Shown one piece after another: positions 6,470 to 62,811 of a stretch of DNA of 64,000 nucleotides. The first letter of the stretch is position 1. Each line of letters begins with the position of its first letter. The notes beneath the pieces were generated by a model. The model ran no database searches, had not been told where the DNA came from, and saw only the letters and a list, made by a program, of their open reading frames with translations. Origin of the DNA: a virus (Duplodnaviria; Caudoviricetes); the IMG/VR virus record IMGVR_UViG_3300029911_000026, positions 768 through 64,767 of that record. One strand, 5' to 3'. A program made the translations under genes and the position numbers.

Positions 6470-6499
6470 GATCATTCTCCGATTCCGGAATCCGGAAAG

Positions 6500-7087
6500 T
6501 TATCCGACGTTGGGCCCGCCGGCGATGTGCGGTGCGCCCGTCGAGTCGACGTAAATCAGGTAAGTGGTGGTCTGGTTCGCGGCTGGGTCCGGCGTGGGCA
6601 TCAGGCAGTTGGCGGGAGGGGTGAAGACTCGCCCGCCGGTTCCATCTTGCTTGAGCATGATCACCACGAAAGCGCCTTCGGCCAGGCTGAGGTTGGTGAA
6701 GCTCGCACTCGCGTTGTTCCCGGTGAGGGTCAGCTCGAAGCGGCGACCGAGAGAGAAGTCGAACACCAAGGCCGAGGCGTAGGTGACGGCGGTAACTGCT
6801 TCTGGAGCCTTGAGCGCCAGCGCTTGGATGCCCGTAGTCAGCAGCGCAATGAGTGTGGCGAGGTTCCCATCGTCAAAGACGTTGGCTCCGCCCAGCGCGA
6901 CGGAAACCACGTTCGCCAGCGCCGCGGCCATGATGGTTGCTTGACGCCAGGGCTTGTTCGCCTGTTGCGGGTAGGCCTCCCCTGTGGTGAAGCCGCCAGT
7001 CTGGTAGGCGGATCCGGCGTAGTCAGCCTGGTCGACGACGTTCGCACCACCGGCCGTTGCGAAGGGCAAAAATTCAATCGTCGCCAT
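6500..7087 (-). CDS. Tail fibre attachment/proximal fibre protein
   Basis: FLPFATAGGANVVDQADY...NKPWRQAT N-terminus typical of Bcep781-like fibres. Confidence 0.75.
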   Translation of the reverse strand: MATIEFLPFATAGGANVVDQADYAGSAYQTGGFTTGEAYPQQANKPWRQATIMAAALANVVSVALGGANVFDDGNLATLIALLTTGIQALALKAPEAVTAVTYASALVFDFSLGRRFELTLTGNNASASFTNLSLAEGAFVVIMLKQDGTGGRVFTPPANCLMPTPDPAANQTTTYLIYVDSTGAPHIAGGPNVG

Positions 7088-7096
7088 TCAAATCTC

Positions 7097-7759
7097 CTAG
7101 GCAGGTTCAAGCCAGCAACCGGTGCCCCATCCTGCGATCAGAGAGTTCTGCACTCCCCATCCGAAAATCGGCTGTCCTGGTACGGACGGCGTGAAGTATC
7201 CGGCAATCCTAACACCGGCGGGTTTCAGGGTGAGCTGTCCGTTGACCAGCAGACCGCGCATCACGGCGGAGAGTGGTGGGCCGATGATGATGTAGCTCAT
7301 CGACATATCCTGCCCGTCGCGAATGAGGATAGTGTACCCCGCTGGCCCAAACACAATCGAGAGGACCGCGTAGGCTCCGGGGATGCTTCCGTCCCAATGG
7401 TTCTTGGCGATCACCGCGCGGATGAGCGTGCGGAACAGTTCATCGGGGAGCAGGTAGAGTGTCGTGCCGCTGTCGTATGGCCCGAGCCAGATGCCTTGGC
7501 CCCATCCTTGGCCGGGCACGCCCCATGAGAAAAAAACGTTCGTGAGCGGAACCTGCAGTGCTCGGCTGGCGCCAACCCAGAGGGCGACCATGTCCTCTTG
7601 CTCACCAACCGCGAGATCCGGGTCGAAGAGGCTGGGCAGAGCGGCGTTCTGCGCTTGGATGTCGAGGAATGGCTGGGTGAGCGCGCCGACCCAGGCGAGC
7701 ATCTTCGGCTTGCGGTGCTCCGACGTGATGAGCGATTGGTACTTCGTGAGGTCGGCCAT
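7097..7759 (-). CDS. Baseplate protein DUF2612
   Basis: YQSLITSEH.KPK, FDPDLAVGEQ, NHWDGSI, DGQDMSM motifs. Confidence 0.85.
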   Translation of the reverse strand: MADLTKYQSLITSEHRKPKMLAWVGALTQPFLDIQAQNAALPSLFDPDLAVGEQEDMVALWVGASRALQVPLTNVFFSWGVPGQGWGQGIWLGPYDSGTTLYLLPDELFRTLIRAVIAKNHWDGSIPGAYAVLSIVFGPAGYTILIRDGQDMSMSYIIIGPPLSAVMRGLLVNGQLTLKPAGVRIAGYFTPSVPGQPIFGWGVQNSLIAGWGTGCWLEPA

Positions 7760-8946
7760 CAGAGTACCGTAACTGCCACGTTGCCGGTGGCGCAAGAGGC
7801 GGCGGCATTGAACGCGATGGTGACGTCGCCGTTGGTCGATGGGTTAGCGGCCAGTCCGATGTAGCAGTGCGTGATGACGAATGTCTGCTGGAGCGGGGTG
7901 TCGGCGAGGCCGGCGGCGGCGGCGCACCAGAACTGATAGACGTTCTCTCCGATGGCCAGGGCATTGATGAAGGCGACCAGCGCGGCGACCAGCGCGGTCT
8001 CGGTGCTGGAGACGTATCCCGCGAGCGGCTGAATCGTGATGGCCGCATAGATCGGTGTCTCGGCCAGCTCGTAGAACCGGATGGTGATGGGCAGACCTTC
8101 TGGGTCGTCGACCACAACCGCGGTGCTCCCATAGGTTCCGCATCCGCCGTCCTTCTGTTGTTCGATGGCCTGGGCGATGGCGGTCGAGTCGCCTCCGGAG
8201 ACCACCACCGAGATGGTGTGGCCGGGAATACCGTTTCCGTCTGGCGTCCCTGTGTCGTTCTGATAGACCTTCGAGCGCTGCACGCCGAGGATATTGGCGA
8301 TGGCCCCTTGGATGGCTTCGAGCTGGGTCCGCGAGCTGATGGCGGTGGAGATGGTCTGCTTCTGGCGGAGATCTCCGTCCTCTTCGACTGGTGCGCCGAT
8401 GGTGGCGGCGGCGGGGTTGGTCGCGCTGTCCCATCCGAGCACGGTCGTATAGGGCACGTTGATCGTGTTCTCCAGAGCGATGATGGCTCCGGGGGTTTGG
8501 CAGGTCGCGGTGACATCGATCGTTCCGGATTCCGGAATCGTGACCAGCGATGGGAGCGCCCAGAGGTTGTTCTGCTGGTCCTGCACCAGGCAGTTCAAGA
8601 GGACCGTGTAGGCGGTTCCTACCAGCGTCAGGATGGCAGTGCTGTAGCTGAGGGGGTCGCGCTGGATTCCGTTGATCTTGACATTCGAGGAGAGCGCCGC
8701 TCCGACCGCTGTCGCAGGGCTGAAAGACAGGTAGCCGGCAATCCCGCTGGCGTTGGTGTCGAAGATGGCTTGCGACACCGCGGCGAGAAGCTGCTCATCC
8801 TGCGCGTCCGGGGTGATGTAAATGTCCTCCCCGAAGATATTTTGCGCGGTCGCATTGAGGCTCCCGATGATGTCTTCGAGCGACGGCGCCGACGCACCCG
8901 TGGGTGTGATCTGGTAGGCGAGCGTGGGGAGCGGGTAGCTGGGCAT
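7759..8946 (-). CDS. Baseplate J/gp47 family protein
   Basis: FSPATAVGAALSSNVKINGIQR, EEDGDLRQKQ, GIPGHTISVVVSGG. Confidence 0.9.
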   Translation of the reverse strand: MPSYPLPTLAYQITPTGASAPSLEDIIGSLNATAQNIFGEDIYITPDAQDEQLLAAVSQAIFDTNASGIAGYLSFSPATAVGAALSSNVKINGIQRDPLSYSTAILTLVGTAYTVLLNCLVQDQQNNLWALPSLVTIPESGTIDVTATCQTPGAIIALENTINVPYTTVLGWDSATNPAAATIGAPVEEDGDLRQKQTISTAISSRTQLEAIQGAIANILGVQRSKVYQNDTGTPDGNGIPGHTISVVVSGGDSTAIAQAIEQQKDGGCGTYGSTAVVVDDPEGLPITIRFYELAETPIYAAITIQPLAGYVSSTETALVAALVAFINALAIGENVYQFWCAAAAGLADTPLQQTFVITHCYIGLAANPSTNGDVTIAFNAAASCATGNVAVTVL

Positions 8947-9368
8947 TAGACGGGCACCGGGTCACCGAAGGGGCGAAGGCCGAACGGGGAGATTCCAAAC
9001 CCGAAGAGCGACGTCGGCATGGTCAGGTTGAACGTGACGGAGCCGTAGATTGACTGCGCTGTCCCGACCACGGTGAGCGCGCGCGTCTTCGGGTCCAGCG
9101 AGGACGAATAAGAATTGAGGCCAGAGACGCCTTCGACACCGAGAATGGCCGTTTGGATGACTTGGTCGTAAAGCCCCGCTGTGCCATTGCCGATTACCTC
9201 CGTCAACCAGGGAACGCCTTGCGAGAGGTCGAGAAACCACTCGCCCGCGAACAGGAGTAGCGTCGTCTGGATCGCCTGGCGCACGGCCTGAGCGGAGTTG
9301 ACGAGGAAGTTCTGCCCGTTCTGCCCGAATGTGTAATCTCCATCAGCGTCAAGAGCACGGTAGCGCAT
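8946..9368 (-). CDS. Baseplate wedge protein (gp25/gp46-like)
   Basis: MRYRALDADGDYTFG, GEWFLDLSQGVPW. Confidence 0.85.
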   Translation of the reverse strand: MRYRALDADGDYTFGQNGQNFLVNSAQAVRQAIQTTLLLFAGEWFLDLSQGVPWLTEVIGNGTAGLYDQVIQTAILGVEGVSGLNSYSSSLDPKTRALTVVGTAQSIYGSVTFNLTMPTSLFGFGISPFGLRPFGDPVPV

Positions 9369-19260: not shown

Positions 19261-19805
19261 TAGGCACCGCCCTCATAGAAGCCTTCGACCGGTCCAGCCC
19301 ATGCACCGATCGCGTAGCCATTGCCGCACAGTATAGCCACGCACTCCATGAGGAAAAGCTGGTTCGCTGCAAGGCAGGGTCCGGAGATGCCCACCTGGAT
19401 AGGTCCGGCGCCCATCATGCGCATCAGGTTCCAGAACCGCGTGCCGTAGATCGTCAGGTTGAAGTTGCCCGCGCCTTCTTCGCCAGCAAGGGCCGTGTCG
19501 TATCCCACGCTGAGGGACTTCCCCGCTTCCGAGGCCACCACGCCGCGGGAGATGCCAGGGATGCCGCCAGCGTCCGCCGCGCTCATGGCGAAGGCTTCCA
19601 GCGCAACGTTGTGCGCGATGAACAGCTCCATGCCGAGGTTGATGAGCGCCGGGTCCCACCGGCACGGATTGAGCAGGTAGGCCGCGATGGTCGCCCAGAA
19701 CGTGATCTGCGAGACGGGGAAGAGGGTCGAGTTTCCGAATTCCGGAAAGTCGAGCACAAACTGCGCGGGGAGGATGGGCGTGTTAGGCGGTGCTGGTAGC
19801 GACAT
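19260..19805 (-). CDS. Head-tail connector DUF4054
   Basis: F..DFPEF, ELFIAHN, SVGYD, NLTIYGTRF. Confidence 0.85.
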   Translation of the reverse strand: MSLPAPPNTPILPAQFVLDFPEFGNSTLFPVSQITFWATIAAYLLNPCRWDPALINLGMELFIAHNVALEAFAMSAADAGGIPGISRGVVASEAGKSLSVGYDTALAGEEGAGNFNLTIYGTRFWNLMRMMGAGPIQVGISGPCLAANQLFLMECVAILCGNGYAIGAWAGPVEGFYEGGA

Positions 19806-28161: not shown

Positions 28162-28168
28162 AGGCGTA

Positions 28169-47376: not shown

Positions 47377-47581
47377 GCGGATGCTCCTGTGGGTAGCTGG
47401 TGGCAGAAACAGCGGCAGTTTTGAATCGGACATCCTTCGCCTAAAAGGGTTGCATCGCAGCACAGTTGGATGGTGTGGCGTTCGCGGTCGGCCTTTGCTT
47501 TGGCGAACGTTTCGAGAACGCTTTTGGGCCATTCTGAACGCGGAATGTGAACTATATCAATCTCGACCGAATGGGTATCGC

Positions 47582-47884
47582 TCATCGTTGCTTCCTCGGA
47601 ACTGACTTTGGCCGGTGCTCGTAAACCTGATGGCAGATCGGATGCTTCGGCACCACGTTCTCCGGTTTGTCCCCGAAATTGCGCTTGCCGCGGATGTGGG
47701 CCATCTCCCAAGCCAGCGGGTTGCAAGGCTGGCCGCATCCAAGCGGCTTGCCGTGCCGGTCTGTCTTGCCGCCTCCACAGATGCCCTTGTGGTAATCGAA
47801 GCAAGCATCCCGGAGGGCTGTCAGGTCATCGCCTTTCAGCCGACCGGGCCTGGGCTTGCTTCGTGGCCGGATGCGCGTTCTCAC
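47582..47884 (-). CDS. Small HNH-like protein
   Basis: EMAHIRGKR..GD...NV...H..CH..YEH. Confidence 0.55.
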   Translation of the reverse strand: MRTRIRPRSKPRPGRLKGDDLTALRDACFDYHKGICGGGKTDRHGKPLGCGQPCNPLAWEMAHIRGKRNFGDKPENVVPKHPICHQVYEHRPKSVPRKQR

Positions 47885-48840: not shown

Positions 48841-48884
48841 GGTGGTGTCTCCTGTGTTGGGCGTGGTGCTAACAATCTACTTTC

Positions 48885-48914
48885 ATTCTAATTGTTAGTA
48901 CCGCCCGTTGTACA
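48885..48914 (-). promoter_or_regulatory. Phage promoter (TGTACA class) with TACTAACAAT in spacer
   Basis: TGTACA-N18-TAGAAT. Confidence 0.6.
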
Positions 48915-48920
48915 CAAGAA

Positions 48921-49712: not shown

Positions 49713-50508
49713 CCTGGGCCTCCCTTCTCGGTCTGCTGAACTCGCTCAGGGCGCCGCTCACGTAGCGCTTGAGCCCGGGGATGAAGTTCTCTGGCGGGTC
49801 CCCTGGGACGATATTATCCGACTGGAACCGGAAGCGCACGCATTTTAGCCACTGCTCCGCGGTCCACTTCGGAGCCGAGCCCAAGAGCTTCTTGAGCCGA
49901 CCGAACGCCAGACCGTTCCATGGGCAATCCACGCCGGGGTTGGCCAGCTCGTATAGCCGGTCGATTTCCGCGACGACCTGGGTGTGGATACTTTTCTCCG
50001 CTCCCGTCTCGAAGAGGCGGGGAGAATCTTTCTCTTTCTTGGTAGTATTCTCTTTCTTCCTTATTGTTTGGGCGTCATTGTCATACCCTATTGCTTCGGT
50101 AGGCATACCCCCTGGGACTAGAGAGTCATACCCTGCCACTGGAATATCGAGGCCATCTTCCTTGTTTTCCGCGCCTTCCACACTTTCGGCAACCGGTGGA
50201 TAAGGGGTGTCGAATACTTCGTACACGTTCTCCTGCCCTTCGGATTTCCCGGAGATGCGTCGCAATAGTCTTACCTCCACCAACTTGTCCAGTTCGCGTG
50301 AAACCTGCCGACGCGAGCAGTTGATGAGTGCGGCGATCTTGCCGATGCCAATGAAGGTCGTCCGGTCGTTCACGCGGCGGTCGATGTAGAGACGCAGGAC
50401 GACATATACCGCTAGGCCATAGGTTCCGAGGGTATGAAGTAACTGCTCCACGATCACCGCATCGACCATTGCGAATCTGCGGCCTCGATTTTGAATCCCG
50501 ATATTCAT
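49627..50508 (-). CDS. Replication initiator, HTH N-terminus
   Basis: GLAVYVVL, IA..INCSRRQVSR.L.KL....LL, N.Y. Confidence 0.75.
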   Translation of the reverse strand: MNIGIQNRGRRFAMVDAVIVEQLLHTLGTYGLAVYVVLRLYIDRRVNDRTTFIGIGKIAALINCSRRQVSRELDKLVEVRLLRRISGKSEGQENVYEVFDTPYPPVAESVEGAENKEDGLDIPVAGYDSLVPGGMPTEAIGYDNDAQTIRKKENTTKKEKDSPRLFETGAEKSIHTQVVAEIDRLYELANPGVDCPWNGLAFGRLKKLLGSAPKWTAEQWLKCVRFRFQSDNIVPGDPPENFIPGLKRYVSGALSEFSRPRREAQDVKPVSRNAAARDAIIAEIDRAASQDDY

Positions 50509-50569
50509 GGTGCCTCAATGTAGCCGCGCCGGGGCTGAGGATGCCCGGCGCGGATTGTGCAAACGTGGA

Positions 50570-51112
50570 TTACTTGATGACCAGGTAGCGCTTGCCGGGA
50601 TGGTCCTCGATGGCAACCTCTGGGGGGATGGCTTCTCCAGCCGCAAGACGGCGCTGGATCTCCGACTTGTTCAATTCGTGCGTCGTGCGCACGATGCTGG
50701 GGTCGGTGATGGCGATCGTGTTCAGATCCGCGTCCGCCGCCAGCCCGACGGTGACGGTGTTCGCTCCGGTGACGCCATAGGCGCTGGTCTTGGCGGTCTT
50801 GATCTTGCCGCCGTGGACCTCGTCGATGAGCATGAGCATCCGGGAGCGCAGGTTGTCAGCGTCGCGCTGGAACATCTTCTTGCGGTCGGCCATGCGCTTG
50901 CTCTCTTCGTCGGCCATCTCAGCCTCGGCCTTGATGCGGCGCCAGACGGCGGCAGCGGCGTCGAGCTTATCGGGACTGGAGCGGAGACAGGCGTCGAGAC
51001 GGGCTTCCAGCTCAGGCGTGAGTTCGCCTTCCGTCTCCTGGAGGATGAGCATGATGTCCTGATGTTCCTGGACGATAGCGAAGATCGTCGGGCGGTTCGG
51101 TTTGTCCGTCAT
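50570..51112 (-). CDS. Gp157-family protein
   Basis: GELTPE, KLD, EESKRM..RKK, KIKT, K..I...L.AGE.I. Confidence 0.75.
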   Translation of the reverse strand: MTDKPNRPTIFAIVQEHQDIMLILQETEGELTPELEARLDACLRSSPDKLDAAAAVWRRIKAEAEMADEESKRMADRKKMFQRDADNLRSRMLMLIDEVHGGKIKTAKTSAYGVTGANTVTVGLAADADLNTIAITDPSIVRTTHELNKSEIQRRLAAGEAIPPEVAIEDHPGKRYLVIK

Positions 51113-51327
51113 AAGGCTCCCTTTTGGTTGCGGGTTGGGGTTTGGGCGCACAGGCCGAGCAGAGCTCGACCTCCATGCCGTTGATCATGGTCCACTGGCC
51201 CTTGCAGCAGGGTTTCATGAAGGCTTTCTCTTGCCGCACCAGAAACATTCATTGGCCGGTCTGGTCGGGCCGTCGTCGTAAACATGGCCTCCATGGCGTA
51301 TCGAGCACCACAATTCTCTTAGCCAGG

Positions 51328-52779
51328 TCATTCTGCGGCCTCCAGCTCTTCGGTAAGCGTCTGCGAGCCTGGGAGGATGTTCTCCGGGTCGATCGTGAGC
51401 GGCACTTCGGAGATGATCTTTCCCTTCATGTAGTGCTTCGTACCGACGCAGGTCACGTCCTCGATGCTCACGTAGTTATCCTTGGCCGGCTTGAGTACCA
51501 TGTTGCACGTCTGGCCCTTCGCCTCTGATAGGGCCGGGAACAGCGACTTGTGCCAGCATGTAGCGGTGTTGGTTCCAAAGGCAACGCCGTTCATTGTGAC
51601 CTTGAAGAACTCGCGGCCGCCAGCGGCTTCGTGGCGGGTCGCATCGAGCACAACGCATTGCACGTCGCCGTTATCGAAGAAGAACTCCCCAGCTTCGCCC
51701 TGGTTCTCATCCTCAGCCGCGGCGAATCCAGCACCAGCATCGGCCAGCAGTTCAAGCTCGCGGTTGATGGATGGCCAGTCGCTACGATGCTTCTGGATGA
51801 GCAAGGCGCGGGCTCCAGCGTCCATGCGCAGAGCGTCCATCGACTGCCGAGCGATCTTCTCATCGTTCGAGACGCGCGTGCGGTCGAGCCAGCTTGTCAG
51901 CTCGAATAGGCGTGAGCGCGGGACCAAGCGGGAGGACTCGTAGCCCAAGCCCTTGACGTGTTCGGCGAACACTTCGCGGGTAATGCTGTTGGCCTTCATC
52001 ATGCCGGCCAGGTTTAGGATGTCCGCTTCGGTGAGAAGTTCGACGGGGGGAACGATGCCGGAACTTAGCCACTTCCAGATCTTCCGCGCCGTCTCCGGGT
52101 CCAGCAGATCAACCGGTGGCCCTCCGGCGAACAGCTCAGTCCGGTCCTTACTCACAAAGGCGCGGTGCTCGCTGTCCAGGTCGAACACCAGCGAAAACTC
52201 GTAGTCGACGCCCTCGCGCTGGATAGGGGCAAGGCCGACCTTGCGGGGAACCTTCTTACCGTCCCGCTCCTCCAGCACGTATTCCATCTTCGAGCGCATC
52301 GTGCAGATCGTGTGGACGTCGAGCGCTTTGATGAACTCGATGAACTCGGTGTGCTCTGGCGAGAGCTTCGACCAATTGGCGAAGCCGTTACCTCCAGCCG
52401 CGTCGAGAGCGTCCTTGCGCGAGCGTATGCCCCCTGCGCCTTCCCATTGGTGGGAGATGGAGTCCACTACCAGCACGTCATAGCCCTGGGTCACAGCAAT
52501 CTGCATGGCGCGCTTGTAGCGGTCGCTCGTATAGGGCGAGGTCAGATGGATGTGATCGAAGGGGTAGATGTCGGCGTAGAGCTCCATGGTGCGGTTCTCG
52601 GTATCGACTCCGAGGACCTTCCAATCTCCGGGCTTGCCGCGGTCAACGGCCATCTGCTGTGCGATTGCGACGGCCAGCGCGAGAGCGCCTTTGGTCTTGC
52701 CTGAGCCGCTTGCACCATCTACGGCCATCTTGAGCTTTACGCGGGACTTGACCGCGCGGCGGGGGGTGAACTCGTCCAT
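51328..52779 (-). CDS. AAA_24 ATPase (Sak4-like recombination protein)
   Basis: GASGSGKT, DTEN, VVDSISHQWEG.GG, ICTMRSK, QREG..YEF. Confidence 0.85.
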   Translation of the reverse strand: MDEFTPRRAVKSRVKLKMAVDGASGSGKTKGALALAVAIAQQMAVDRGKPGDWKVLGVDTENRTMELYADIYPFDHIHLTSPYTSDRYKRAMQIAVTQGYDVLVVDSISHQWEGAGGIRSRKDALDAAGGNGFANWSKLSPEHTEFIEFIKALDVHTICTMRSKMEYVLEERDGKKVPRKVGLAPIQREGVDYEFSLVFDLDSEHRAFVSKDRTELFAGGPPVDLLDPETARKIWKWLSSGIVPPVELLTEADILNLAGMMKANSITREVFAEHVKGLGYESSRLVPRSRLFELTSWLDRTRVSNDEKIARQSMDALRMDAGARALLIQKHRSDWPSINRELELLADAGAGFAAAEDENQGEAGEFFFDNGDVQCVVLDATRHEAAGGREFFKVTMNGVAFGTNTATCWHKSLFPALSEAKGQTCNMVLKPAKDNYVSIEDVTCVGTKHYMKGKIISEVPLTIDPENILPGSQTLTEELEAAE

Positions 52780-52867
52780 CTTCGTCTCCATTCCGGAATC
52801 CGGAAAACACGGGGCCGAAAAGGGCACCCTCTCGGGTGCCCTCGCGGTGCTCATCTGCCAGAGCTGG

Positions 52868-53080
52868 CTAGGCGGCTTTCGCCTTCTCTTGCGATCGGAT
52901 GTGACTGAGCACGACATCCATGATGAAGCTAGACATCGAGCGTCGGTCTGCGGTAGCCGCTGCCACTATAGCCTCCCGCTCCTGTGGTGTGGAGGGATAA
53001 ACCATAATGGGACCGGTTTTCAACTTTCCACCGCGAGGCAGTTTCTCCGTCTCGGTAGCTTCCTGTGTCGCAGTGCTCAT
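52868..53080 (-). CDS. Ribbon-helix-helix regulator
   Basis: ERE.I..AA..D.RSMSSFI; leaderless promoter TTGACA-N17-TAATGT at 53088-53116; hairpin at 52820-52842. Confidence 0.65.
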   Translation of the reverse strand: MSTATQEATETEKLPRGGKLKTGPIMVYPSTPQEREAIVAAATADRRSMSSFIMDVVLSHIRSQEKAKAA

Positions 53081-53168
53081 AAGCACTACATTAGCGGGTT
53101 CACTGCGTTGTGTCAACACCGGGGCTGTGGACGGTTTGGGACTTGACGTGGAAAACTCGGTCACAGCG

Positions 53169-53909
53169 TTAGGCTGCGGCCGATATGGCTTCTGGGGAGA
53201 CATTGCTCTCCTCCTCTTCTGACCCTTCGGTCGGGAACTCGTGAACCTCGGCCTTGGCGAGATTCTCTTCGGCCTTCTGCTGGTTCTTGAGCAGGTCGTC
53301 AACGGCCTTGACCGAAGTCAGCCACTTGCCCTTCTCGGAGTCTGACCGCATCGGCATCATCACACCGAGCGCGCCGTTGGGATGGGTCTTGACCAGGTAG
53401 GCTCCATCCTTTGCACCTGGCCAGATGGCGACGAAGTTGCTGCGATCTGCGCCGCTGCCGCTGGGCCGACCGAGCGCGTCAACGATGCGCTGGAGCAACG
53501 TGATGTCGAAGGTGATGATCGGGTCGCCCGTGACCTTCGGCATGACCGCCTCGAAGTTGGGGAAGTTGCCCTTCTCCGGCCGGCGGAACGTGACCGTCTT
53601 TCCGTCGAAGTGATTGGCGACGATGATCTTGTCGTCGATCGCTTGGATGCTGACGTACTTGCCGGGGTTGGAGTCGTAGATGGGAACCGTTTTGAGCGCC
53701 TTGCGGTACTCCTGCAGCGCCTCCGCGGTTATCCATCCGCTCGTCTCTCCGGTGTCCGGGATGACGTGGGTGATGACGAGCGCGTTTCCGTTGGTTGCGG
53801 CCAGGTGACCCTTGTCCGCGTCGAAGTAGACGTGATTGATGGTGTACCGGCTCTGTTCTTTCGAGCAGACCTTCTCGATCAGGCCGCTCCCGAGATTCGT
53901 AAAGTGCAT
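53169..53909 (-). CDS. Beta sliding-clamp-like protein
   Basis: SRYTIN.V, ATNG..L, G.FPNFE.VMP, GVMMPMR. Confidence 0.7.
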   Translation of the reverse strand: MHFTNLGSGLIEKVCSKEQSRYTINHVYFDADKGHLAATNGNALVITHVIPDTGETSGWITAEALQEYRKALKTVPIYDSNPGKYVSIQAIDDKIIVANHFDGKTVTFRRPEKGNFPNFEAVMPKVTGDPIITFDITLLQRIVDALGRPSGSGADRSNFVAIWPGAKDGAYLVKTHPNGALGVMMPMRSDSEKGKWLTSVKAVDDLLKNQQKAEENLAKAEVHEFPTEGSEEEESNVSPEAISAAA

Positions 53910-54007
53910 GGCGTGTCTCCTGTGTTGCTTTGGGCGTTGGGTTGTGGCAGCATAAAGGCTGCTCGTTTGTCCACCGCTGGGCTTCTGCGAGAGGCCCAGC
54001 GGACTCC

Positions 54008-54574
54008 TCAGAACGGGTAGTCGGTAGTCTCCCCTCCAATCTCCTGATCGTGTTCCGCTTGCTCTGTGGATGGGTCCGGCGGTTCAAGCTGTAGGCTCGC
54101 GGGAGCCCCAAGCTCGTTCGTGGCGTCCATGACGATTGAGGCGCCCGCTCCAAGTAGGCTGGGGCAATCCCATTCGATGACGTCCTCCTCGCGTTCGGGT
54201 TGTGCCTCTACGAACTTGGCTGGCTGGGCTGGGATGACGCGCTTCCCGACAACCTTCGGCATACAGACCGTCGCGCGGATGGCGACAAACTTCAACTCGA
54301 CGCCATCGCCAAAATCCTTCACCAGTCGGAAGTAGCTTTCATCGACTTGCTTCTCGCAAGCTCCGAGCCGGAGCCGAGCCAGCGCCATGAACGCCAGCGA
54401 GTCGATGGAATGGTTGACGCCAGACTGGTCTGGCAACGAGCCTCCATAAACGCTGATGCTGATGGCGTCCGGCATCGGCAGATCGGTTGTGGCCATGAGG
54501 TCGGCCAACTGGTGTAGCTTGGCGCATATCGCTGCGCGCCGCTCAGGGGTAGGGTTCATCGTGAATCTCCTCAT
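54008..54574 (-). CDS. Hypothetical protein
   Basis: R..VC...VVG......EWDCPSLL. Confidence 0.55.
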   Translation of the reverse strand: MRRFTMNPTPERRAAICAKLHQLADLMATTDLPMPDAISISVYGGSLPDQSGVNHSIDSLAFMALARLRLGACEKQVDESYFRLVKDFGDGVELKFVAIRATVCMPKVVGKRVIPAQPAKFVEAQPEREEDVIEWDCPSLLGAGASIVMDATNELGAPASLQLEPPDPSTEQAEHDQEIGGETTDYPF

Positions 54575-55004
54575 CGTGGATTTGGTTTTCCGGAATCCGG
54601 AAAGGGTTAGAGGTTGAACGAAGCTGCGGTTAGAACGACGGTCACAGCGTAATAGGCGATCAGCAAGGTGATGCCGGTCAGCATGGCGTAGTCATTGATC
54701 TTCTCGTTTAGGGTCTGCATGGCGTTTCTCCTCTTCTATCAGAATGATGGTGCGAAAACGTCGAACTCGGTTGCGGGCCGCGCGGCATCTTGCTCTGCGG
54801 CCAGTTGGCGGAAGTGAAGCTCGCGCTCGTGGCAGATGGGCTTGCCGGTGCGCCTGTAGAGGTTGCCCCAGCGGAACGCCAGGTGGTGAGGGCCATACTT
54901 ATCGGCCCGGGCCTTCTTCGTGCTGACGAAAACTCCATCGTCAACCTCGACGGTGCGGCCACCGGCGGAGCGGGGATATCCTCTCGGACGCTGCCAGATG
55001 CCTT

Positions 55005-55853
55005 TCATGCAACCTTCTTTCTGGACACGGCCTCGACGGATGCGGTGAGCGCGGCGAGCATGTCCTGTTTCTCTGGGGCCGCGCGGCGGATGGGAATGAC
55101 TGGAGCCTTGCCGTCGATCTTGGCGGCGACCAGGGCTTTGACGTTCACGACGTAGCCATCGGAGAAGTCCTCCGGGTTGAACGTGCCGGCCATGCCCTGC
55201 ACCAACTGAGTGCCGAGCTTGACCTCTGCGGTCGAGAGGGTGAGCTGGTCAATCGGGAACGGAGCCGACTTGAGTTCCGACTGGTAGAACAGCGAGTGCA
55301 GCGCGATGCCCTGCTCAAAGGGACGGATGAGGATGATCTGCTCACTGGACCCGAACGCTGCGCGCCCGATACCGACCTTGCCGGTCTTGCGAAGGATGTC
55401 GCGGATGAGCATGTAGGGCTTGGAACCGCCGTCGCCTGGGGCAACGTAGTGGCTAGTCTCGAAGTAGATAGGGTCAACGTCCGAGGCGTCGACGAAGCGG
55501 TCGATCTCGATGATGGTCGAGCTTTCCGGCTTCTGGGCTTCCAACTCTTCGGCGGAGATGACAACAAACTGGCCCTTGCGGTACTCGTAGCCCTTCACAA
55601 TCTCGTCGCTGGCCACGTCCTCATTGCATTGTGGGCAGGTCATGGACTGCTGTTTCAGGGTGCCGAGGCACTTCGCATGAAGCTGGCGGAAGCGGATGCG
55701 GTCGGCGCGCGCGCCGGTGTGGAGCTTGATAGGGAAGGTGAGAAGCCCGATCTGGAGCGTCAGATTCGTTCCAGATGAGCGCTTAGGCTCGCTGATAGGC
55801 GAGACGTTGGACGGGGCGGGGAGTGCGGTAGGCTTAGCGGCTGATCTTGCCAT
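55005..55853 (-). CDS. ku: Ku protein (NHEJ DNA end binding)
   Basis: GLL.FPIKL, FRQLH, EIVKGYEY.KG.FVV, FV...DVDPIYFE.S.YV.P, D..AAL.ASV. Confidence 0.92.
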   Translation of the reverse strand: MARSAAKPTALPAPSNVSPISEPKRSSGTNLTLQIGLLTFPIKLHTGARADRIRFRQLHAKCLGTLKQQSMTCPQCNEDVASDEIVKGYEYRKGQFVVISAEELEAQKPESSTIIEIDRFVDASDVDPIYFETSHYVAPGDGGSKPYMLIRDILRKTGKVGIGRAAFGSSEQIILIRPFEQGIALHSLFYQSELKSAPFPIDQLTLSTAEVKLGTQLVQGMAGTFNPEDFSDGYVVNVKALVAAKIDGKAPVIPIRRAAPEKQDMLAALTASVEAVSRKKVA

Positions 55854-56013
55854 AAGGCTCCTGTAACTGCTCGAATGGTTCGGTGTAGCGCTGGTCGCGT
55901 TCCGCAATTCGGAAAGCAACCGCGCCCACGGTGGTTTGGAACCGGAAGGCCAGATATTCGAGCATGAGCTCGGTATGGTCGGTCGCGGTGATGGGCATAA
56001 TGTCCATGAACTA

Positions 56014-56042
56014 ATACTAACATTGTACTAGTGTACTGTCCA
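56014..56042 (-). promoter_or_regulatory. Phage promoter
   Basis: TGGACA-N17-TAGTAT, extended TG. Confidence 0.7.
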
Positions 56043-56062
56043 CAAAATTCAGCATGGCGAGC

Positions 56063-56093
56063 AAAGAAAATGGGCCGGTTTCCCGGCCCAAAA
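56063..56093. terminator. Intrinsic terminator
   Basis: TGGGCCGG-GAAA-CCGGCCCA-TTTTCTTT on minus strand. Confidence 0.7.
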
Positions 56094-56174
56094 GTTCCTT
56101 CAATCGCTACAAACTGAGGTAGACGGACTTCCGGCGCCGGGCGAGCCGCTAATCGTTTTCCGGATTCCGGAAAG

Positions 56175-57227
56175 TTAGACGGTCGCCAGCTCCAGTCCGG
56201 CGATCTCCGCCGCCGCGATGATGGCGCGCTGCTTCAAGCGCTCTCCCTCACCGAACCATGCGGCTGTCATGCGGCTTTCCTGGGTCCGCCCGCGCTGGTG
56301 GTCAGCGTAGTACGTCACTCCATTGACAGCTCCCCAGAGGGTGCCCTTGGCCGATGAAAGCTCGGAGCCCGGTGAGTTGATGGTGGCCTGTTGGATGGTG
56401 CGCGCGACGTAGGTCAGATCGGCCTTCTTTGGGTCGATGACCTTTGCCTCGTCTCCGCCCATGAGACGGTTCATGAAGTCCATCCAGCCGGACTCGTCGA
56501 TTGTGACCTTGGCCAACTGCTCGGCCAGATCGTTCGTGGCGATGACCTGCTGGCCGGCCATGCCCATGATGCTCTTGGCCTCGTCGCGACGTGCCGGTGT
56601 CCACTCTCCGCCGTGGGAGAACTTGAACCCGTGCTGGAGTGACGTCTTACTGCGGTTGCCCCAGAGCGCCGCGCTGAGGGTGTTCCAGCAGACGACCCGG
56701 ACCTGAGTGGCCCGGCCCATCGTACTCAGCTTGCCGTCGTGAGACGTGGTGAGCAAGAGGTAGCCGCGGAGCTCGTCAGTTCCCTGGAGCGTCTTGGTCG
56801 TCCCGCCATTCAACCGGGCAAGAGCCCAGACGATGGCACCGCCATTGAGTCCGCCGACCGTCTCCATGGTGGCGTGACCAGCCTCGCAGTACTCATTGAA
56901 GAAGTTGACGACTTCCTCGTTCTGCACCGGATGGTAGAACGGTGAGGCGATCTGGAACACCTTGCCGGTGTCGCTGCGGGTGATGGCCGAGAAGTTCTTG
57001 CCGGCCGCGGGGTCGAACGCACTGTGGGGATTCTCCATCGCGGAGATCTCGTCCTGCGTGTAGGGAGCGGTTGCAATCGCCACAGGGCGCTTCTCAACCG
57101 TCCAGTCCAGTCCGGCCAGCTTCAACATCTCCGGACCCTTCGTACCGGGAGCAACTTCCACTCCCAGACCATGCCAGGGCCGCTCACCCTGATAAGCGAT
57201 CATGTTCTCTTCGATCATGTGTGCCAT
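56175..57227 (-). CDS. DUF932 protein
   Basis: MAH, PWHGLG, AGLDW.V, YLLL.TSHDG, VRVVC.NTL, GTLWG..N.VT.Y.DH. Confidence 0.9.
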   Translation of the reverse strand: MAHMIEENMIAYQGERPWHGLGVEVAPGTKGPEMLKLAGLDWTVEKRPVAIATAPYTQDEISAMENPHSAFDPAAGKNFSAITRSDTGKVFQIASPFYHPVQNEEVVNFFNEYCEAGHATMETVGGLNGGAIVWALARLNGGTTKTLQGTDELRGYLLLTTSHDGKLSTMGRATQVRVVCWNTLSAALWGNRSKTSLQHGFKFSHGGEWTPARRDEAKSIMGMAGQQVIATNDLAEQLAKVTIDESGWMDFMNRLMGGDEAKVIDPKKADLTYVARTIQQATINSPGSELSSAKGTLWGAVNGVTYYADHQRGRTQESRMTAAWFGEGERLKQRAIIAAAEIAGLELATV

Positions 57228-57870
57228 TTGCTCGTCTCTCCTGTGGCGCTGCGAGCGCCGTTGGCCCAGGGACCGCTGGGGCGGTGTGAGTTTCTATAGA
57301 GTCAATACTAACATTGTGACTGCGTGGCGTACAGGAGTTTTCGAGCTTTATTTGCTCGACCGTGACGCCGTTAGCGAGCCTGGCTTGGCAGCTATGCCGA
57401 ACCTTCTTCGCCTCGCGGTCGCACCATTCGTTGACGAAAGAGCGCGGCTGGTCGATGCCTGTATGGGCGCGGATGTGCTTCAACCAGACCTTGAGGCCGG
57501 CGGCGTTGGCGGCATCCATGGCCAGCTTCGCGAATTCTCGGCTGGTGCGACTCCCATGGTTCTCGCAGATGGGATGGTCGGTAGTTTTAGCCGGTCTAGC
57601 GCCGAGGGTCATTAGGACGCCGAGCGCGCGTAGGCTGTCGGACTGTGCGACGATGGCGCCGCCTGGTTGCGTCTCGAAGCCATTGATCGCGGCGAGTATG
57701 GCGCAACAGAGGCCCACCGTCTCCGCTTCGTGATTGTTCGGGCATGGCCATTCGCCAGAGGCGCAGATGCGCTTGGAGCCATCACCGCGGACCCAATAGG
57801 CAAAGCCTCCAGCTTGCTTGCCGCGCCTGTCCCATGAGGCGTCTGCGAAAACAGTCAGGAGCCGGTTCAT
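57184..57870 (-). CDS. RNase HI-like protein (C-terminal tail overlaps next promoter)
   Basis: FADAS, NNHEAE, QSDS, HIRAH, N..CD..AK. Confidence 0.75.
   Translation of the reverse strand: MNRLLTVFADASWDRRGKQAGGFAYWVRGDGSKRICASGEWPCPNNHEAETVGLCCAILAAINGFETQPGGAIVAQSDSLRALGVLMTLGARPAKTTDHPICENHGSRTSREFAKLAMDAANAAGLKVWLKHIRAHTGIDQPRSFVNEWCDREAKKVRHSCQARLANGVTVEQIKLENSCTPRSHNVSIDSIETHTAPAVPGPTALAAPQERRANGTHDRREHDRLSG
57305..57333 (-). promoter_or_regulatory. Phage promoter
   Basis: TGTACG-N17-TAGTAT. Confidence 0.7.
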
Positions 57871-59544: not shown

Positions 59545-60372
59545 TCATGACGGCCTCTCCAGTACGACCAGCACGGCGTTGACCGCCGTTCCGGACTCGA
59601 TGAATGAACCGGCCGGCAAGTCCATGATGTTGCCGTGCCCGCTGTTGACCAGTTCGCGGATCTGAACGTATTCCGTCTCGCGGCGGAACTTGACGCTCGA
59701 GGCCGCGACGCTGACCAGTATGCCTCCGGGCCGGAGCAGCATGTAGGCGCGAAGGATATGCTGCGCGTCCTGCCGGTTCTCGAAAGGGGGGTTGGCGAGT
59801 ATCCGGTCGAACTCGGTATCGCCCTTCTCGTAGACCCATGTGTCGCCCATGAAATCGGACTGGCAGATAACGGCTCCGGGGAGCGCCTTGAGGGCCTGTG
59901 AGGCGCGTTGCTCGTCAATCTCGATGCCCAGGATGGAGAAGGTGTCGAAGGCTGGCTCCAGCTCTTCGAGATGCTTGAGTAGCGCACCGTCTCCGCAGCT
60001 CGGCTCCAGAATCCGGTTGCCGGGGGTGAGCTGGGCGAAGTCGAGCATCCGCTCTACGACCGCCTTGGGGGTGCGGAAGAAGCCGTTCTTGCGTGGCGGA
60101 GCGATCTCGCCGGTGCGGATGCACTCGTCCAGCTTGGCGCGGACTTCCTCGACCGACTGCGGGAAGAGATGGCCTCCGGTGTGGCGGCTCCATTTGCCGC
60201 CTAGGTCTACCAGGACGGAGTTCACTCGGAGATAGAGCTTGCGCTCCAGTTGCCCATCGCGGATGCGTACGATGGTATCAACGGCTGTGCCCTCGAAGTG
60301 GCGCTCCTCGATGTAACATCCGCTGAGGACTGCCAAAGCGTCGTCTGCGATGGTGAGCGTTACGGTTTTCAT
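59545..60372 (-). CDS. SAM-dependent N6-adenine-type DNA methyltransferase
   Basis: GFFRTP, ILEPSCGDG, ILANPPF, LRPGG.LV, GSF.ESGT.V. Confidence 0.85.
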   Translation of the reverse strand: MKTVTLTIADDALAVLSGCYIEERHFEGTAVDTIVRIRDGQLERKLYLRVNSVLVDLGGKWSRHTGGHLFPQSVEEVRAKLDECIRTGEIAPPRKNGFFRTPKAVVERMLDFAQLTPGNRILEPSCGDGALLKHLEELEPAFDTFSILGIEIDEQRASQALKALPGAVICQSDFMGDTWVYEKGDTEFDRILANPPFENRQDAQHILRAYMLLRPGGILVSVAASSVKFRRETEYVQIRELVNSGHGNIMDLPAGSFIESGTAVNAVLVVLERPS

Positions 60373-61678
60373 GCTGCCAACCTCCGTACTTCCTGCTTCT
60401 GTTTGAGTTGCGCCCAGGTGCAATCCGAGGCGTCTACGTCCGTGCGCGGCCCGAGGTCCTCCGGCTGGTAGAGACGCCCGCCGGCGCCCACATAAAGATA
60501 TTTGATCTCTCGGTACGTTCCGGATTCCGGAATCTCGGCCGTCTTGGTGAGGGTCACGGTGCCCACCGGATACCACTGGCCGAGCCGGTCGCAGTCGCAG
60601 ACCTGGCAGGTCTGGGTGCGCTCGTCGAAGCTGGACATCTTCCACACGGCCTTGTGCGCTGGAACCGAGATGCCGTCCTCTCGCAGATGGGAGCCGATCT
60701 GGGGATGGTCGTCGCTCGCCCAGACCGAATAGGCGTCGAAGCGGAGAACCTCCACCGCGAAGCTCGCATGGCCGTCCTGCTTCTTCTTGTCGCAGACCCG
60801 AACGGTGGCGCTCTCCCAGAACTTGATCTTGACGTTCGTTCCCTTCCGGCCCGGCATGTAGGGAGCGTCGAGGCGCTTGAATACGACGCCCTCACCGTTG
60901 GCCTCGCGCTCACCGAGCAGCATGGCGAACTTTGCATCCGCTCCCTGATAGAGCGGAGCGATCTTGACGATGCCCTGCAGACGGCTCCACAACCGGCCGT
61001 AACGCTCGATGTAGGGGATGGAGCGCAGATCTTCGCCGTCCAGCTCCAGCAGGTCGAACGCGACGTACTCGCCCAACTGAGGAGCCACTCGCCGTCCAGC
61101 ATGACGCTTATGCCGGCCTCGCGGAGCTTGGCGAGGACGTTCGATGGAATCTCCATCGGCTCGCCCTTGCGGTTGTAGGCAATGGCCCGGTGCGTCTCTA
61201 CCGCGGTGAACGCAACCTCGATGGCCATGCGGTGACCGTCGTATTTCTTCTGGCCTCCGAAGGCATCGTTTTCAACGTACCTGGTAGCCTGACCGTCTGC
61301 CGGTTCGAGCAGTTCCGGCTCAAAGCGCCGCGCGGCTGGTTTCGGGAGGGTGATGGGCTCGGTGACGATCACGTTTGCCCGGTGTGCAACCGGGCTTGCG
61401 ATGGCGGGAGTGTACTCGGTGGGGACATAGGTCCCCATGCAGCACTCGCAGCGCTTCCCGGTCTTTTCCGCAACCAGGCGTTCGTAGATGCGGAGAGCTT
61501 CGCCGTAGGGCAGAGGCGTCTTGGTCTTGGTGCCGAGGGTGAGAGCCTTTCCAATCGCCCCATATTGGAAGTTGACCAGCCAGAGGTCCGGAACTGGAAT
61601 GTAGGGTGCCAGCTCCACGTTGTACTGCTTTGAGTGTCTGTCGTTCTGGAGGACCAGCGTGATGCTCTTTGGTTCCAT
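60369..61678 (-). pseudogene. WGR-like domain + ATP-dependent DNA ligase split by frameshift near 61080
   Basis: KYDGHR and LDGE in one frame; YVAFDLLE, EGVVFKR, KIKF, EIKYLY in another. Confidence 0.75.
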
Positions 61679-61726
61679 GTCGTTTCTCCTGAGATTCGGC
61701 GGGTGCCGAGATTCGGTTCTATTTCA

Positions 61727-61755
61727 ATACTAATAGAGTGCTAGCTGAATGTACA
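61727..61755 (-). promoter_or_regulatory. Phage promoter
   Basis: TGTACA-N17-TAGTAT. Confidence 0.7.
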
Positions 61756-61764
61756 CCGAAATCG

Positions 61765-62298
61765 TCATGGCTTTTCCGGCTGAATCTTGAACTTGACGCC
61801 CATATCGAGCAGAACTTTCTTCGATAGAACGTCGCAGATGTCGTTCTCTTCGCGGGGGACCCAATCGAGCGTGATGCGCTTGCCGTGGATTCCCATGAGT
61901 CGCTTCGCTTCCTGGTAGTAGGGCAGGTAAAGCCCGCCGTTCATCTTCCAGAGAGCGTGGTAGCCGAGCCGCTTGGCTGCATCCAGGGACAGATGGCAGA
62001 TCACCAGCCGCGAGTCGCCACGGATGTAGATTGCGCCCTCATGCTTGACGGCCTCGGTGAGCGCCGCGACAAATCCGGAGTATTCAGCGACGTTGTTCGA
62101 CATGCCAGCGCCAAAGCCGCAATAGCCGCCCTCGCGGTAGACCCATTCGCCATTGACTCTAACGCACGCGCCCCATGCGGCGTGACCACCTGGATTCTGA
62201 GGTTCGCAGCAGCCATCGAACCATGCGCATACCGGGCTCATCAGATCCAGCTTTTCGCGGAGCCGCGGGTCGCCGTTCTTGCTCGCTCGGCTCATCAT
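61765..62298 (-). CDS. RNase HI family protein
   Basis: WFDG.C...NPG, SNNVAEY.G, GDSRLVI, WVPREEN..CD.LS. Confidence 0.88.
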   Translation of the reverse strand: MMSRASKNGDPRLREKLDLMSPVCAWFDGCCEPQNPGGHAAWGACVRVNGEWVYREGGYCGFGAGMSNNVAEYSGFVAALTEAVKHEGAIYIRGDSRLVICHLSLDAAKRLGYHALWKMNGGLYLPYYQEAKRLMGIHGKRITLDWVPREENDICDVLSKKVLLDMGVKFKIQPEKP

Positions 62299-62811
62299 CC
62301 GACCTGCACAATCTTGTGGCAATGGACGCATATCCAGTGGTGCTTGCTTATTGCCGCGCCTGGAGTGTTGTCGGCAACGTAGATGGCCGATTCGCCTTTA
62401 TCGCAGTGGCACCAAAGATCATCGAGCGCCTTGCTCGCGACCAGTTTTCCGGATTCCGGAATCTTGTCGAAGTCCCGTGCGTAGTCGATTAGCTGCTGAG
62501 AGAAGGGAAGGCCCGCCCGCTGGCGAGCCTCCTCGATCTCTGCTTTGGCGATGGCTTCGGTGTGCGCTTTGACGTTCATGAGCTACGACCTTTCAGCCAT
62601 TCCTTCACCTTATGGGGCGAGCCCCAGCAAGCGGCAGGAACATGCCAGTAGAGATGCTGCACGATGTCAAAGAGAAGGTAGCGGTTCTGAGTATCCGCAC
62701 GACTACAAGCATCTCGCAGATCATTGGATAGAACCGCCTCAAGAAAACCGCCCGTAGGGATGCGGTGTTCAACGTACCTGTCGATGCTGGGAATGATGTG
62801 GCTGATGTCGT

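Follow-up and report, generated by a model that had tools for sequence, protein, structure and literature searches.

Here, we analysed a stretch of 64,000 nucleotides of phage DNA (in the following 'the window'), which covers bases 768-64767 of the IMG/VR record IMGVR_UViG_3300029911_000026, and the 15-bp palindrome TTCCGGAWTCCGGAA that is dispersed over it. The repeat is real, strongly selected and, judged by the sampled bacterial genomes, specific to the phage. Based on sequence comparison and structural modelling, we propose that it is a selected duplex-DNA site for a dimeric binder encoded by the phage itself, a reading to which we assign a probability of roughly 0.6; the best candidate for the binder is the predicted product of the gene at 47884-48840. 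The best reading of its role would be that of a global regulator or genome organiser. The kind of element has already been described; new are its presence in a second, unrelated phage clade, a series of co-evolving variants and a specific candidate binder with a predicted ParB/Noc-like fold.

Copy number of the palindrome

The window holds 17 exact copies of TTCCGGAWTCCGGAA, at precisely the coordinates listed in the original prediction, and an 18th copy at record base 401, outside the window, brings the circular record to 18. Every copy (18/18) reads TTCCGG-AWT-CCGGAA. The earlier estimate that about 1e-4 copies would be expected by chance is upheld by Markov models of order 0 to order 3, which yielded 1e-4 to 4e-4 copies, and not a single copy appeared in 100 dinucleotide shuffles. 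Two copies had been claimed to extend to 19-bp palindromes with their flanks, and this was confirmed at 15752 and 27927. The single hexamer TCCGGA occurs 28 times with 26 expected, thus selection and enrichment concern the dyad only. Relaxing the search to at most two mismatches added just two sites:

19733 to 19747, no strand: near-copy with one mismatch; encodes F-P-E-F-G, with the same codons in homologues of motif-bearing and motif-less phages
55900 to 55914, no strand: near-copy with two mismatches, at the start of the Ku gene

Judging from its sequence, the near-copy at 19733 is probably not a working site and would be a coding by-product.

Absence of the motif from a lower-GC accessory block at 33.3-37.3 kb had also been pointed out. 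It is real and statistically non-significant, the chance that a given 4-kb block is empty being 0.32; for the largest gap between copies (9.9 kb), a gap of that size has a probability of 0.78. Contigs from four peat metagenome runs, compared over 37400-57300, vary at 37 places, none of them within the nine motifs of this region, where merely 0.25 was expected, so that this comparison has no power. One contig carries a 1-base insertion at 54575 (13 nt before the motif at 54588-54602) and a 1-base deletion at 54604 (2 nt after it), with the motif itself unchanged.

Genomic position of the copies

Judged by codon log-likelihood and local context, 12 of the 18 copies are boundary or intergenic, five lie within coding sequence and one is ambiguous. 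The view that most copies sit at gene junctions therefore holds, with a boundary enrichment of P = 8e-8 given about 12% non-coding DNA. Five boundary copies are located 2-4 nt past a stop codon, several are found directly before a Shine-Dalgarno sequence and ATG, and 11 of the 18 copies fall into the 26-kb early region. The copies in the window are the following (ORF, open reading frame; the motif is given no strand):

6483 to 6497, no strand: boundary; stop TAA, 2 nt, motif, GGAGA, ATG of gene 5951-6475 (minus strand)
8523 to 8537, no strand: inside the baseplate J gene 7762-8946; encodes I-P-E-S-G
13254 to 13268, no strand: inside the tape-measure gene 12587-14302; encodes S-G-F-R-K
15754 to 15768, no strand: 2 nt past the stop of gene 15774-16235; flanks extend it to a 19-bp palindrome
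25643 to 25657, no strand: boundary; likely ATG of gene 25012-25590 about 47 nt downstream
27929 to 27943, no strand: 19-bp palindrome if the flanks are included; ambiguous whether coding (weak signal within the longest ORF, 27133-28197)
37497 to 37511, no strand: frame switch between two genes; GAGGG and ATG 11 nt downstream
37982 to 37996, no strand: inside ORF 37881-38444; encodes I-P-E-S-G
39600 to 39614, no strand: the DUF5131 gene probably starts 13 nt downstream (Pfam match from residue 49 of the longest ORF)
41226 to 41240, no strand: directly after the terminator-like hairpin 41265-41249; 4 nt before an ATG
43921 to 43935, no strand: 3 nt past the stop TGA of gene 43942-44313; the motif end overlaps the next ATG
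46197 to 46211, no strand: 3' tail of the Cys-rich ORF 46136-46771; 17 nt before ATG 46179
52791 to 52805, no strand: flanked by a hairpin and by the GGAGA-ATG of the AAA_24 gene
54588 to 54602, no strand: 4 nt past a stop codon, 28 nt before ATG 54574
56158 to 56172, no strand: 2 nt past the stop of the DUF932 gene
60518 to 60532, no strand: N-terminal part of the methyltransferase-like ORF 59548-60645; encodes I-P-E-S-G; coding by codon score
62447 to 62461, no strand: inside ORF 62298-62579; encodes I-P-E-S-G

The AAA_24 gene behind the copy at 52791 is the first gene of the replication operon that includes 47884-48840. A promoter-like site (15485-15457) and three tRNA genes share the intergenic region with the copy at 15754, and 67 nt beyond the copy at 56158 there is a strong terminator-like hairpin (56090-56071), together with a promoter-like site and the Ku gene.

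Copies had been reported inside conserved coding sequences as well, which is true of the baseplate J and tape-measure genes but not of a ligase gene, as none was found in G000 (our number for the source phage). The peptides said to be forced by the motif are indeed encoded: four sites give IPESG, the one at 13254 gives SGFRK and the one in the tail of ORF 46136-46771 gives SGIRK. IPESG arose independently at four of the five intragenic sites, and the baseplate J site aligns without gaps with IPSSG, IPANG, IPLSG and similar peptides in nine homologues. Taken together, these two observations indicate that selected point substitutions, rather than insertions, give rise to the sites.

Read along the coding strand, 13 sites have A in the centre and five have T (8:4 at the boundary sites). 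As the centre occurs in either sense, there is no strand rule, which is expected for a symmetric duplex-DNA site.

The 18th copy fills the 17-nt spacer of a strong sigma-70-like promoter (TTGCTT-17-TATAGT, record bases 385-415) that ranks as the fourth-best promoter candidate of the genome. High-scoring promoters with motif-filled spacers were also found in the related records G004 (TTGATT-17-TATAGT) and G022 (TTGATT-17-CATACT), and in G033 and G035 two sites adjoin -35-like hexamers. The gene that follows the spacer-motif promoter of G000 spans the junction of the two record ends and encodes a 125-residue Ala/Pro-rich protein.

But could the repeat act in the RNA instead of the DNA? An intercistronic hairpin with a 6-bp stem and a 3-nt loop might serve mRNA stability, processing or translational coupling, possibly together with an RNA-binding protein. 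It would fit the 12 of 18 sites that lie between a stop codon and the next ribosome-binding site, including the five close behind the stop, and the location of the genes on one strand, so that all copies are transcribed in the same sense. The predicted folding energy is -6.5 kcal/mol for the motif hairpin and -9.3 kcal/mol for the 21-nt version of G033. However, such a hairpin is weak and no Rfam family matches at any site (a scan of the window with Rfam 15 returned four tRNA matches, none at a motif). Moreover, the five intragenic sites were created by substitution, one site lies in a promoter spacer upstream of any transcript start, and the loop is present in both orientations within single genomes, as in G000 (13 A and 5 T) and in the relative G069 (TTT and AAA). 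We regard an RNA element as unlikely, and the comparison with related phages described below adds to this view.

Other explanations were tried and rejected. A mobile 15-bp insertion element is excluded by the ungapped baseplate J alignment. Methylation of the CcrM/GANTC type was dismissed: the centre GAWTC is a GANTC site, but the 240 copies of GANTC in total match expectation. A restriction-site effect at TCCGGA does not agree with isolated hexamers being at expectation. A fixed promoter element was discarded as well, as no -10 or -35 element is conserved at a set distance and one of the 18 sites is located at a strong promoter candidate.

Motif variants in related phages

A scan of IMG/VR for the exact motif matched at least 113 stretches, mostly single chance hits among the matches listed. 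At least four records contain two to three exact copies each, and all four are collinear relatives of G000 with 40-65% protein identity. The exact 13-mer core was found in none of 15 portal relatives and in none of 77 capsid relatives (80 loci minus the known carriers G001-G003). The looser pattern TTCCGNNWNNCGGAA matched 17 of 92 records, three of which (G046, G056 and G064) gave single hits without a palindromic centre. Thus, 14 of the 92 related virus records carry a motif of the family TTCCG-N5-CGGAA, whose TTCCG arms are invariant and which is restricted to a single clade of metagenome myoviruses. With its A/T centre, the family can also be written as TTCCGG-WWW-CCGGAA. A k-mer and palindrome scan of the loci for analogous motifs of other relatives gave three TTCCG-family variants and a few unrelated repeats. 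G004 additionally contains four copies of CGATTTTTGTTGAC, a distinct repeated 14-mer that includes a -35-like TTGAC.

The centre differs by group: it is GAWTC in G000-G004 and AAWTT in G020-G022, G062 and G069 have GAAAC/GTTTC centres alone (three sites each), and G032-G035 show mostly GTWAC and some GAAAC in a palindrome lengthened to the 21-bp ATTTTCCGGTWACCGGAAAAT. Both TTT and AAA centres are present in G069. One 'hybrid' site in each of G020-G022 encodes FPEFG with the same codons as position 19733 of G000 and, going by the shared codons, is probably a coding by-product, too. A quick maximum-likelihood tree of 81 capsid rows places the 13 carriers of the motif together on one side of a single branch (Shimodaira-Hasegawa-like approximate likelihood ratio test, SH-aLRT, 92) and splits them into two well-supported subclades, with GAWTC occurring in both. 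The simplest history would be a single origin with GAWTC as the ancestral centre, followed by stepwise change.

Certain places recur across lineages, namely just upstream of the protease, capsid, baseplate-W and small-terminase genes; two further recurrent places, the 3' tail of ORF 46136-46771 and the leader of the AAA_24 gene, are shared with G000. The site upstream of the capsid gene has the centre GAATC in G003, GAAAC in G062, G033 and G035, GTTTC in G069 and GTAAC in G032 and G034. The G000 site at 46197 corresponds to 44731 in G033, its position being kept in G033 and G035 with a GTTAC centre, and the site at 52791 corresponds to 38944 in G033, where it is kept with a GAAAC centre. The remaining sites are not conserved between lineages. 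Conserved positions with lineage-specific centres indicate that the sites changed in place and in concert, as expected with a co-evolving trans-acting factor.

With regard to the RNA hairpin, the innermost stem pair of G020-G022 shows a compensatory change from G-C to A-T. Apart from this one pair, however, the stem is without covariation across phages whose proteins are 35-65% identical. Arms that stay invariant across such divergence indicate that the sequence is recognised and not the structure.

Occurrence in bacterial genomes

Could the palindrome be bound by a protein of the host (for example a global regulator or a nucleoid-associated protein) that the phage recruits, with the lineage-specific centres reflecting different hosts? 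The family pattern TTCCGGWWWCCGGAA was present in zero to three copies in each of 522 sampled bacterial genomes. The 20 genomes with distant capsid relatives have zero or one copy each. In 401 Burkholderiales, 20 genomes showed exactly one copy of TTCCGGWWWCCGGAA (12 genomes with the reversed control), while 17 of 101 Acidobacteriota genomes had one to three copies (two genomes with the control). The exact G000-type copy was somewhat commoner in Acidobacteriota (10/101, one each) than in Burkholderiales (3/401). Acidobacteriota are common in peat, from which the phage originates. On the other hand, no sampled genome exceeds three copies, and the density of the motif in the phage is thousands-fold above that of the sampled bacterial genomes. 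Eighteen of the bacterial motif loci have no neighbouring gene in common, which argues against a conserved host operator. In addition, the motif follows a phage gene module (see below) and changes stepwise inside one phage clade. We therefore consider a host protein as the binder to be very unlikely.

Candidate binding protein

The original prediction had interpreted the repeat as a selected binding site for a dimeric protein, and this interpretation is in part borne out by the dyad symmetry with an A or T centre, the concerted change of the sites, the origin of the intragenic ones by substitution, the lack of enrichment in the sampled bacterial genomes and the co-occurrence with a gene module. 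Six complete motif-less relatives have structural genes alone in common with G000; the motif-bearing G033, G035 and G004 additionally share the terminase genes and the early module. Every motif-bearing record that covers the region has the HNH gene 44662-45231, the genes 47884-48840 and 48924-49712 and the initiator-like gene 49630-50508. Profile searches detected the 47884 family in 4/4 motif-bearing long records and in 0/23 motif-less ones, 14 of which are at least 90% complete. We focused on the following gene of this module:

47884 to 48840, minus strand: best candidate binder; 319-aa protein with a modelled ParB/Noc/KorB-type helix-turn-helix DNA-binding domain at about residues 50-190

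The putative domain is flanked by a disordered, Lys-rich N-terminus (residues 1-44, predicted) and by long C-terminal helices with an acidic tail. The family is rare, with five clusters in 5.8 billion proteins and three IMG/VR homologues, the same ones already found; no homologue was detected in cultured phages or in two metagenome scans. An AlphaFold2 model based on eight sequences had a mean predicted local distance difference test score (pLDDT) of 66, with 78-88 across residues 50-190. Foldseek gave no match for this model at E<=0.001. Structural alignment against 48,161 chains ranked ParB on parS (Z 7.6), Spo0J (Z 7.5; root-mean-square deviation, rmsd, 3.3 Å over 107 residues) and KorB (Z 6.9; KorB on its operator, 1r71_A, rmsd 3.2 Å, 108/114 residues) as the top three. 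In a second comparison with 669 chains, the top six were Noc/ParB domains, the best being Noc on its binding site (Z 8.6, rmsd 2.8 Å, 112/116 residues); the next unrelated fold reached Z 7.1 and others at most 4.5. As far as the fold is concerned, the model points to a ParB-type DNA-binding domain in a protein devoid of the N-terminal (CTPase) domain of ParB.

In the putative recognition helix, one residue differs between the groups: G000 and G004 (GAWTC) have E at this position, G033 and G035 (GTWAC) have Q. This difference may track the centre and is only a lead, given that it comes from two related pairs of sequences. In G004, a motif is located about 185 nt upstream of the 47884-family gene. 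Among the binders proposed at the outset, the protein of 47881-48840 is thus favoured by its predicted fold and its presence pattern (4/4 versus 0/23), whereas the ParB_N protein (42372-43307), the winged helix-turn-helix ORF (27133-28197) and the N-terminal extension of the protease are disfavoured because none of them has a homologue in the complete motif-bearing genome G033. What the analysis shows is the repeat, its family, how far it extends phylogenetically, where its copies lie and the similarity of the candidate's fold; that a protein binds the palindrome, which protein this would be and what its binding would bring about is what we infer.

Several points weigh against this proposal. 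The presence pattern of 47884-48840 is not specific, being shown by 44662-45231, 48924-49712 and 49630-50508 as well, and the co-occurrence of motif and module counts as one evolutionary event, since all carriers belong to one clade. The ParB/Noc likeness stems solely from a medium-confidence model (mean pLDDT 66), and Z values of 7-8.6 are within the range that the tool flags as possible by chance for helical proteins. A profile of the 47884 family had no match in the PDB at E<=10, and Pfam detected no ParB or helix-turn-helix family and no ParB_N in eight family members; by sequence, none of the proteins of 47884, 48924 and 46136 matched a PDB entry. All six sites of G062 and G069 are asymmetric (GAAAC/GTTTC), which is odd for a strictly symmetric homodimer. 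As a predicted promoter is present at just 1/18 G000 sites, a role in transcription is a guess. Finally, integrase, excisionase, repressor, ParA, IncC and KorA-like families had no match in scans of 101 ORFs with PHROGs and of 53 ORFs with Pfam, in which a missing repressor, integrase or excisionase match is no proof of absence; the lack of repressor, integrase and ParA matches weakens the analogies with immunity and partition systems.

The module also contains the HNH gene, whose presence pattern equals that of the motif, and the palindrome might accordingly be a target for nucleases or recombination, e.g. for nicking by the product of 44662-45231. It would then help to process intermediates of replication or packaging, or favour the exchange of modules when relatives co-infect a cell. 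G000 encodes two more HNH-like ORFs, a protein with a ParB-like nuclease domain, Ku and a Gam/Gp157-like protein, and in Cluster O mycobacteriophages some indels are flanked by the repeats of these phages (PMC4351075). Yet a palindromic site would suffer cuts on both strands, and contigs of the four peat runs showed no ends or joints at motifs (a comparison of low power). Site positions are kept between diverged genomes and have no link to the synteny breaks inspected. A nuclease or recombination target is, in our opinion, highly improbable.

The modelled fold raises the question whether the sites are centromere-like elements of a plasmid-prophage partition system in the style of ParB-parS. 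This would match the ParB-type fold of the candidate, the weak ParB_N match of a second G000 protein and the fact that no integrase was found in the complete genome. However, no ParA was found, the candidate is without a CTPase domain, the ParB_N protein is lacking in the complete and motif-bearing G033, the sites are dispersed and unclustered, and their sequence and half-site spacing are unlike parS. There is, in our estimation, very little chance that partition is the function of the repeat.

Proposed mode of action

If the palindrome is a site for a dimeric phage protein, each monomer would read one outer arm, TTCCGG, and the 3-bp A/T centre would be read weakly or via the shape of the DNA, drifting along with the protein. 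The 18th site in the promoter spacer (record bases 385-415) could act as a classical operator. The other sites would occupy the scarce non-coding nucleotides between genes, or protein loops that tolerate the encoded peptides. From there, the bound protein might modulate transcription through the single-strand gene array, either as a roadblock or by a KorB-like action at a distance. Alternatively, it might organise the phage chromosome.

Genome of the source phage

The IMG/VR record is 64,767 bases long and rated complete by CheckV. The first 164 bases of the record (1-164) and its last 164 (window 63837-64000) overlap by about 120-164 bases within a Pro/Ala-coding repeat. Because of this overlap in the PAVPAV-coding repeat, the assembly is circular or the genome circularly permuted, though the record is classed as 'linear'. 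The PAVPAV repeat count is unequal at the two record ends.

According to the PHROGs and Pfam scans, G000 is a myovirus with nearly all genes on the minus strand. The structural and lysis genes are ordered lysin, large tail fibre, baseplate, tape measure, sheath, capsid, protease, portal and terminase. The early region after the terminase encodes a replication-initiator-like protein, the AAA_24 ATPase and Gp157/Gam-like and Ku-like proteins, as well as DUF932, DUF5131, two RNase H-like, HNH and methyltransferase-like proteins and the protein with a weak ParB_N match. Cultured relatives are all distant, with 57% identity for the best capsid match. Near-identical DNA is contained in 24 peat-metagenome DNA runs, with no RNA run listed among them.

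Some features of the genome are of interest in their own right. Of 50,697 phage records searched by tblastn, 87 matched the Ku-like protein (window 55008-55919), and 86 of these belong to Mycobacterium phages of the Omega-like and Corndog-like types; a Ku gene is unusual for a peat myovirus of 61% G+C. Four tRNA genes (Ser-GCT, Leu-TAG, Leu-CAA and Thr-GGT; window 15067-15320 and 42208-42301) lie on the coding strand; three of them are clustered between the tail-tube and tail-chaperone genes, directly downstream of the promoter-like site 15485-15457, which is a strong one. The lower-GC accessory block contains a 27-bp tandem repeat (10.4 copies, 94% identity, window 35771-36052) that codes for a 9-residue protein repeat in ORF 35579-36505 (DUF7666, phrog_18079). 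A plus-strand ORF of 509 codons (40368-41903) overlaps three minus-strand ORFs and has a codon-position GC resembling an antisense shadow. Since, in addition, two of the opposing minus-strand ORFs are conserved in G033 and G035, it is probably not a gene. ORFs 60557-61678 and 59548-60645 share 89 nt, through which codon scores favour the downstream methyltransferase-like frame; the end of the former or the start of the latter is uncertain. Several palindromic hexamers are avoided in the whole record, namely CAGCTG (0 found, 25 expected), GCATGC (0 found, 23 expected) and CTCGAG (3 found, 31 expected), and AAGCTT, TTCGAA and GTCGAC are likewise low. This pattern looks like evasion of host restriction sites and could aid identification of the host.

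Comparison with known systems

A literature search for the exact motif strings found no paper. The conserved inverted repeats of phiC31 may be a parallel, from which we draw no claim. Genome-wide dyad repeats of phages have been in print since the description of Cluster O mycobacteriophages (Corndog, Catdawg and others), without an assigned binder or function. The Cluster O repeat is the 17-bp TGTTCGG-NNN-CCGAACA with invariant arms, present in 34 copies in Corndog; its centre is mostly AAA or TTT and follows no orientation rule (PMC4351075). Of its copies, which mostly belong to the non-structural region, 14 are intergenic, 10 are close to gene starts and 10-11 are within genes; few are near promoters and host genomes contain none (PMC4351075). 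The phages are not temperate and encode proteins with Ku-like, AAA-ATPase and ParB-like domains; the authors postulated a dimeric protein that binds the DNA but identified no function (PMC4351075). A search of the literature retrieved no later study of the binder or function of this repeat, and a later genome note just repeats the count.

The G000 repeat resembles the Cluster O repeat in the scarcity of copies near promoters and in its invariant inverted arms, its 3-bp A/T-rich centre, its number (tens of copies over a genome of 65-70 kb), the lack of an orientation rule, the enrichment between genes of the non-structural region and the minority of copies inside genes. In an 18.9-kb stretch of Corndog, we found 11 repeat copies, the inner 9 bp of which (CGG-WWW-CCG) are identical to the core of the G000 family. 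The outer arm letters differ, however: TGTTCGGNNNCCGAACA is absent from G000, and the 18.9-kb Corndog stretch contains no copy of the G000 motif. Moreover, G000 is a myovirus from peat and the Cluster O phages are siphoviruses of Mycobacterium with no other relationship to it; by sequence they share just Ku (24% identity). No Corndog protein gave a tblastn match to 47884-48840, and profile comparison to gp90 and gp76 gave a probability of <1%. We thus file the G000 repeat as the same kind of element as the Cluster O repeat and as a separate repeat family. Dyad repeats of this type are consequently not peculiar to one mycobacteriophage cluster, as an unrelated clade of environmental myoviruses has the same layout and the same inner core.

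There are 12 OB sites on the IncP plasmid RK2. OB is a palindromic operator dispersed over a replicon of about 60 kb; it is bound by KorB, which belongs to the ParB family, has a helix-turn-helix and represses both adjacent and distant promoters (PMC11790492). In this respect, it is like the G000 repeat, and our modelled candidate has the DNA-binding domain of KorB (1r71_A, Z 6.9) as one of its best structural matches. By contrast, KorB is described as having the ParB N-terminal CTPase domain (sliding clamp) and the partners KorA and IncC, neither of which was found in G000, and the reported operator sequence differs.

As in Noc-NBS and ParB-parS, a palindrome would be read by a ParB-type domain, and the Noc sites are chromosome-wide (PMC7383237). 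TTTCC occurs in the NBS half-site TATTTCCC (PMC7383237) and, equally oriented, in the G033-type arm ATTTTCCGG, which may be coincidence. In contrast to the G000 repeat, NBS and parS are described as 16-bp sites with abutting half-sites, whereas the TTCC...GGAA blocks of G000 are 5 bp farther apart (PMC7383237). The candidate also differs from Noc and ParB in being without a CTPase domain and without detectable sequence similarity to them.

The stoperators of Cluster A phages are short sites in more than 20 copies at an early promoter and in short intergenic gaps, where a phage protein silences transcription (PMC9283540). G000 shares this placement, with one copy in a promoter spacer and 11 more at gene boundaries. 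Stoperators, however, are 13-mers without symmetry to which a monomer binds, they are oriented along the direction of transcription and need this orientation to function, and the phages are temperate with the immunity repressor as binder (PMC9283540). The G000 site is a perfect palindrome with its centre in both senses, and neither a repressor nor an integrase was found. KorB-OB, Noc-NBS/ParB-parS and stoperators can thus be viewed as functional analogues, each of which fails at least one defining feature in G000.

A bolder version of our proposal, which we consider doubtful and put forward tentatively, would go further: a CTPase-less ParB/Noc-type protein may nucleate at the roughly 18 palindromes and mark, silence or organise the phage chromosome, much like Noc-NBS or KorB-OB, the CGG-WWW-CCG principle may recur together with Ku in the unrelated actinobacterial phages of Cluster O, and the clade may record a change of the centre from GAWTC via GAAAC to GTWAC, letter by letter, at all sites and through an all-asymmetric stage. 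The pairing of a 319-residue protein of predicted ParB/Noc-like fold with a 15-bp site offers a concrete and cheap test. The natural series of motif variants at conserved positions is suited to study how a protein and all of its sites shift specificity together. If the binder is confirmed, site and protein would constitute a compact orthogonal module for DNA labelling or repression, as ParB-parS and Noc-NBS already do.

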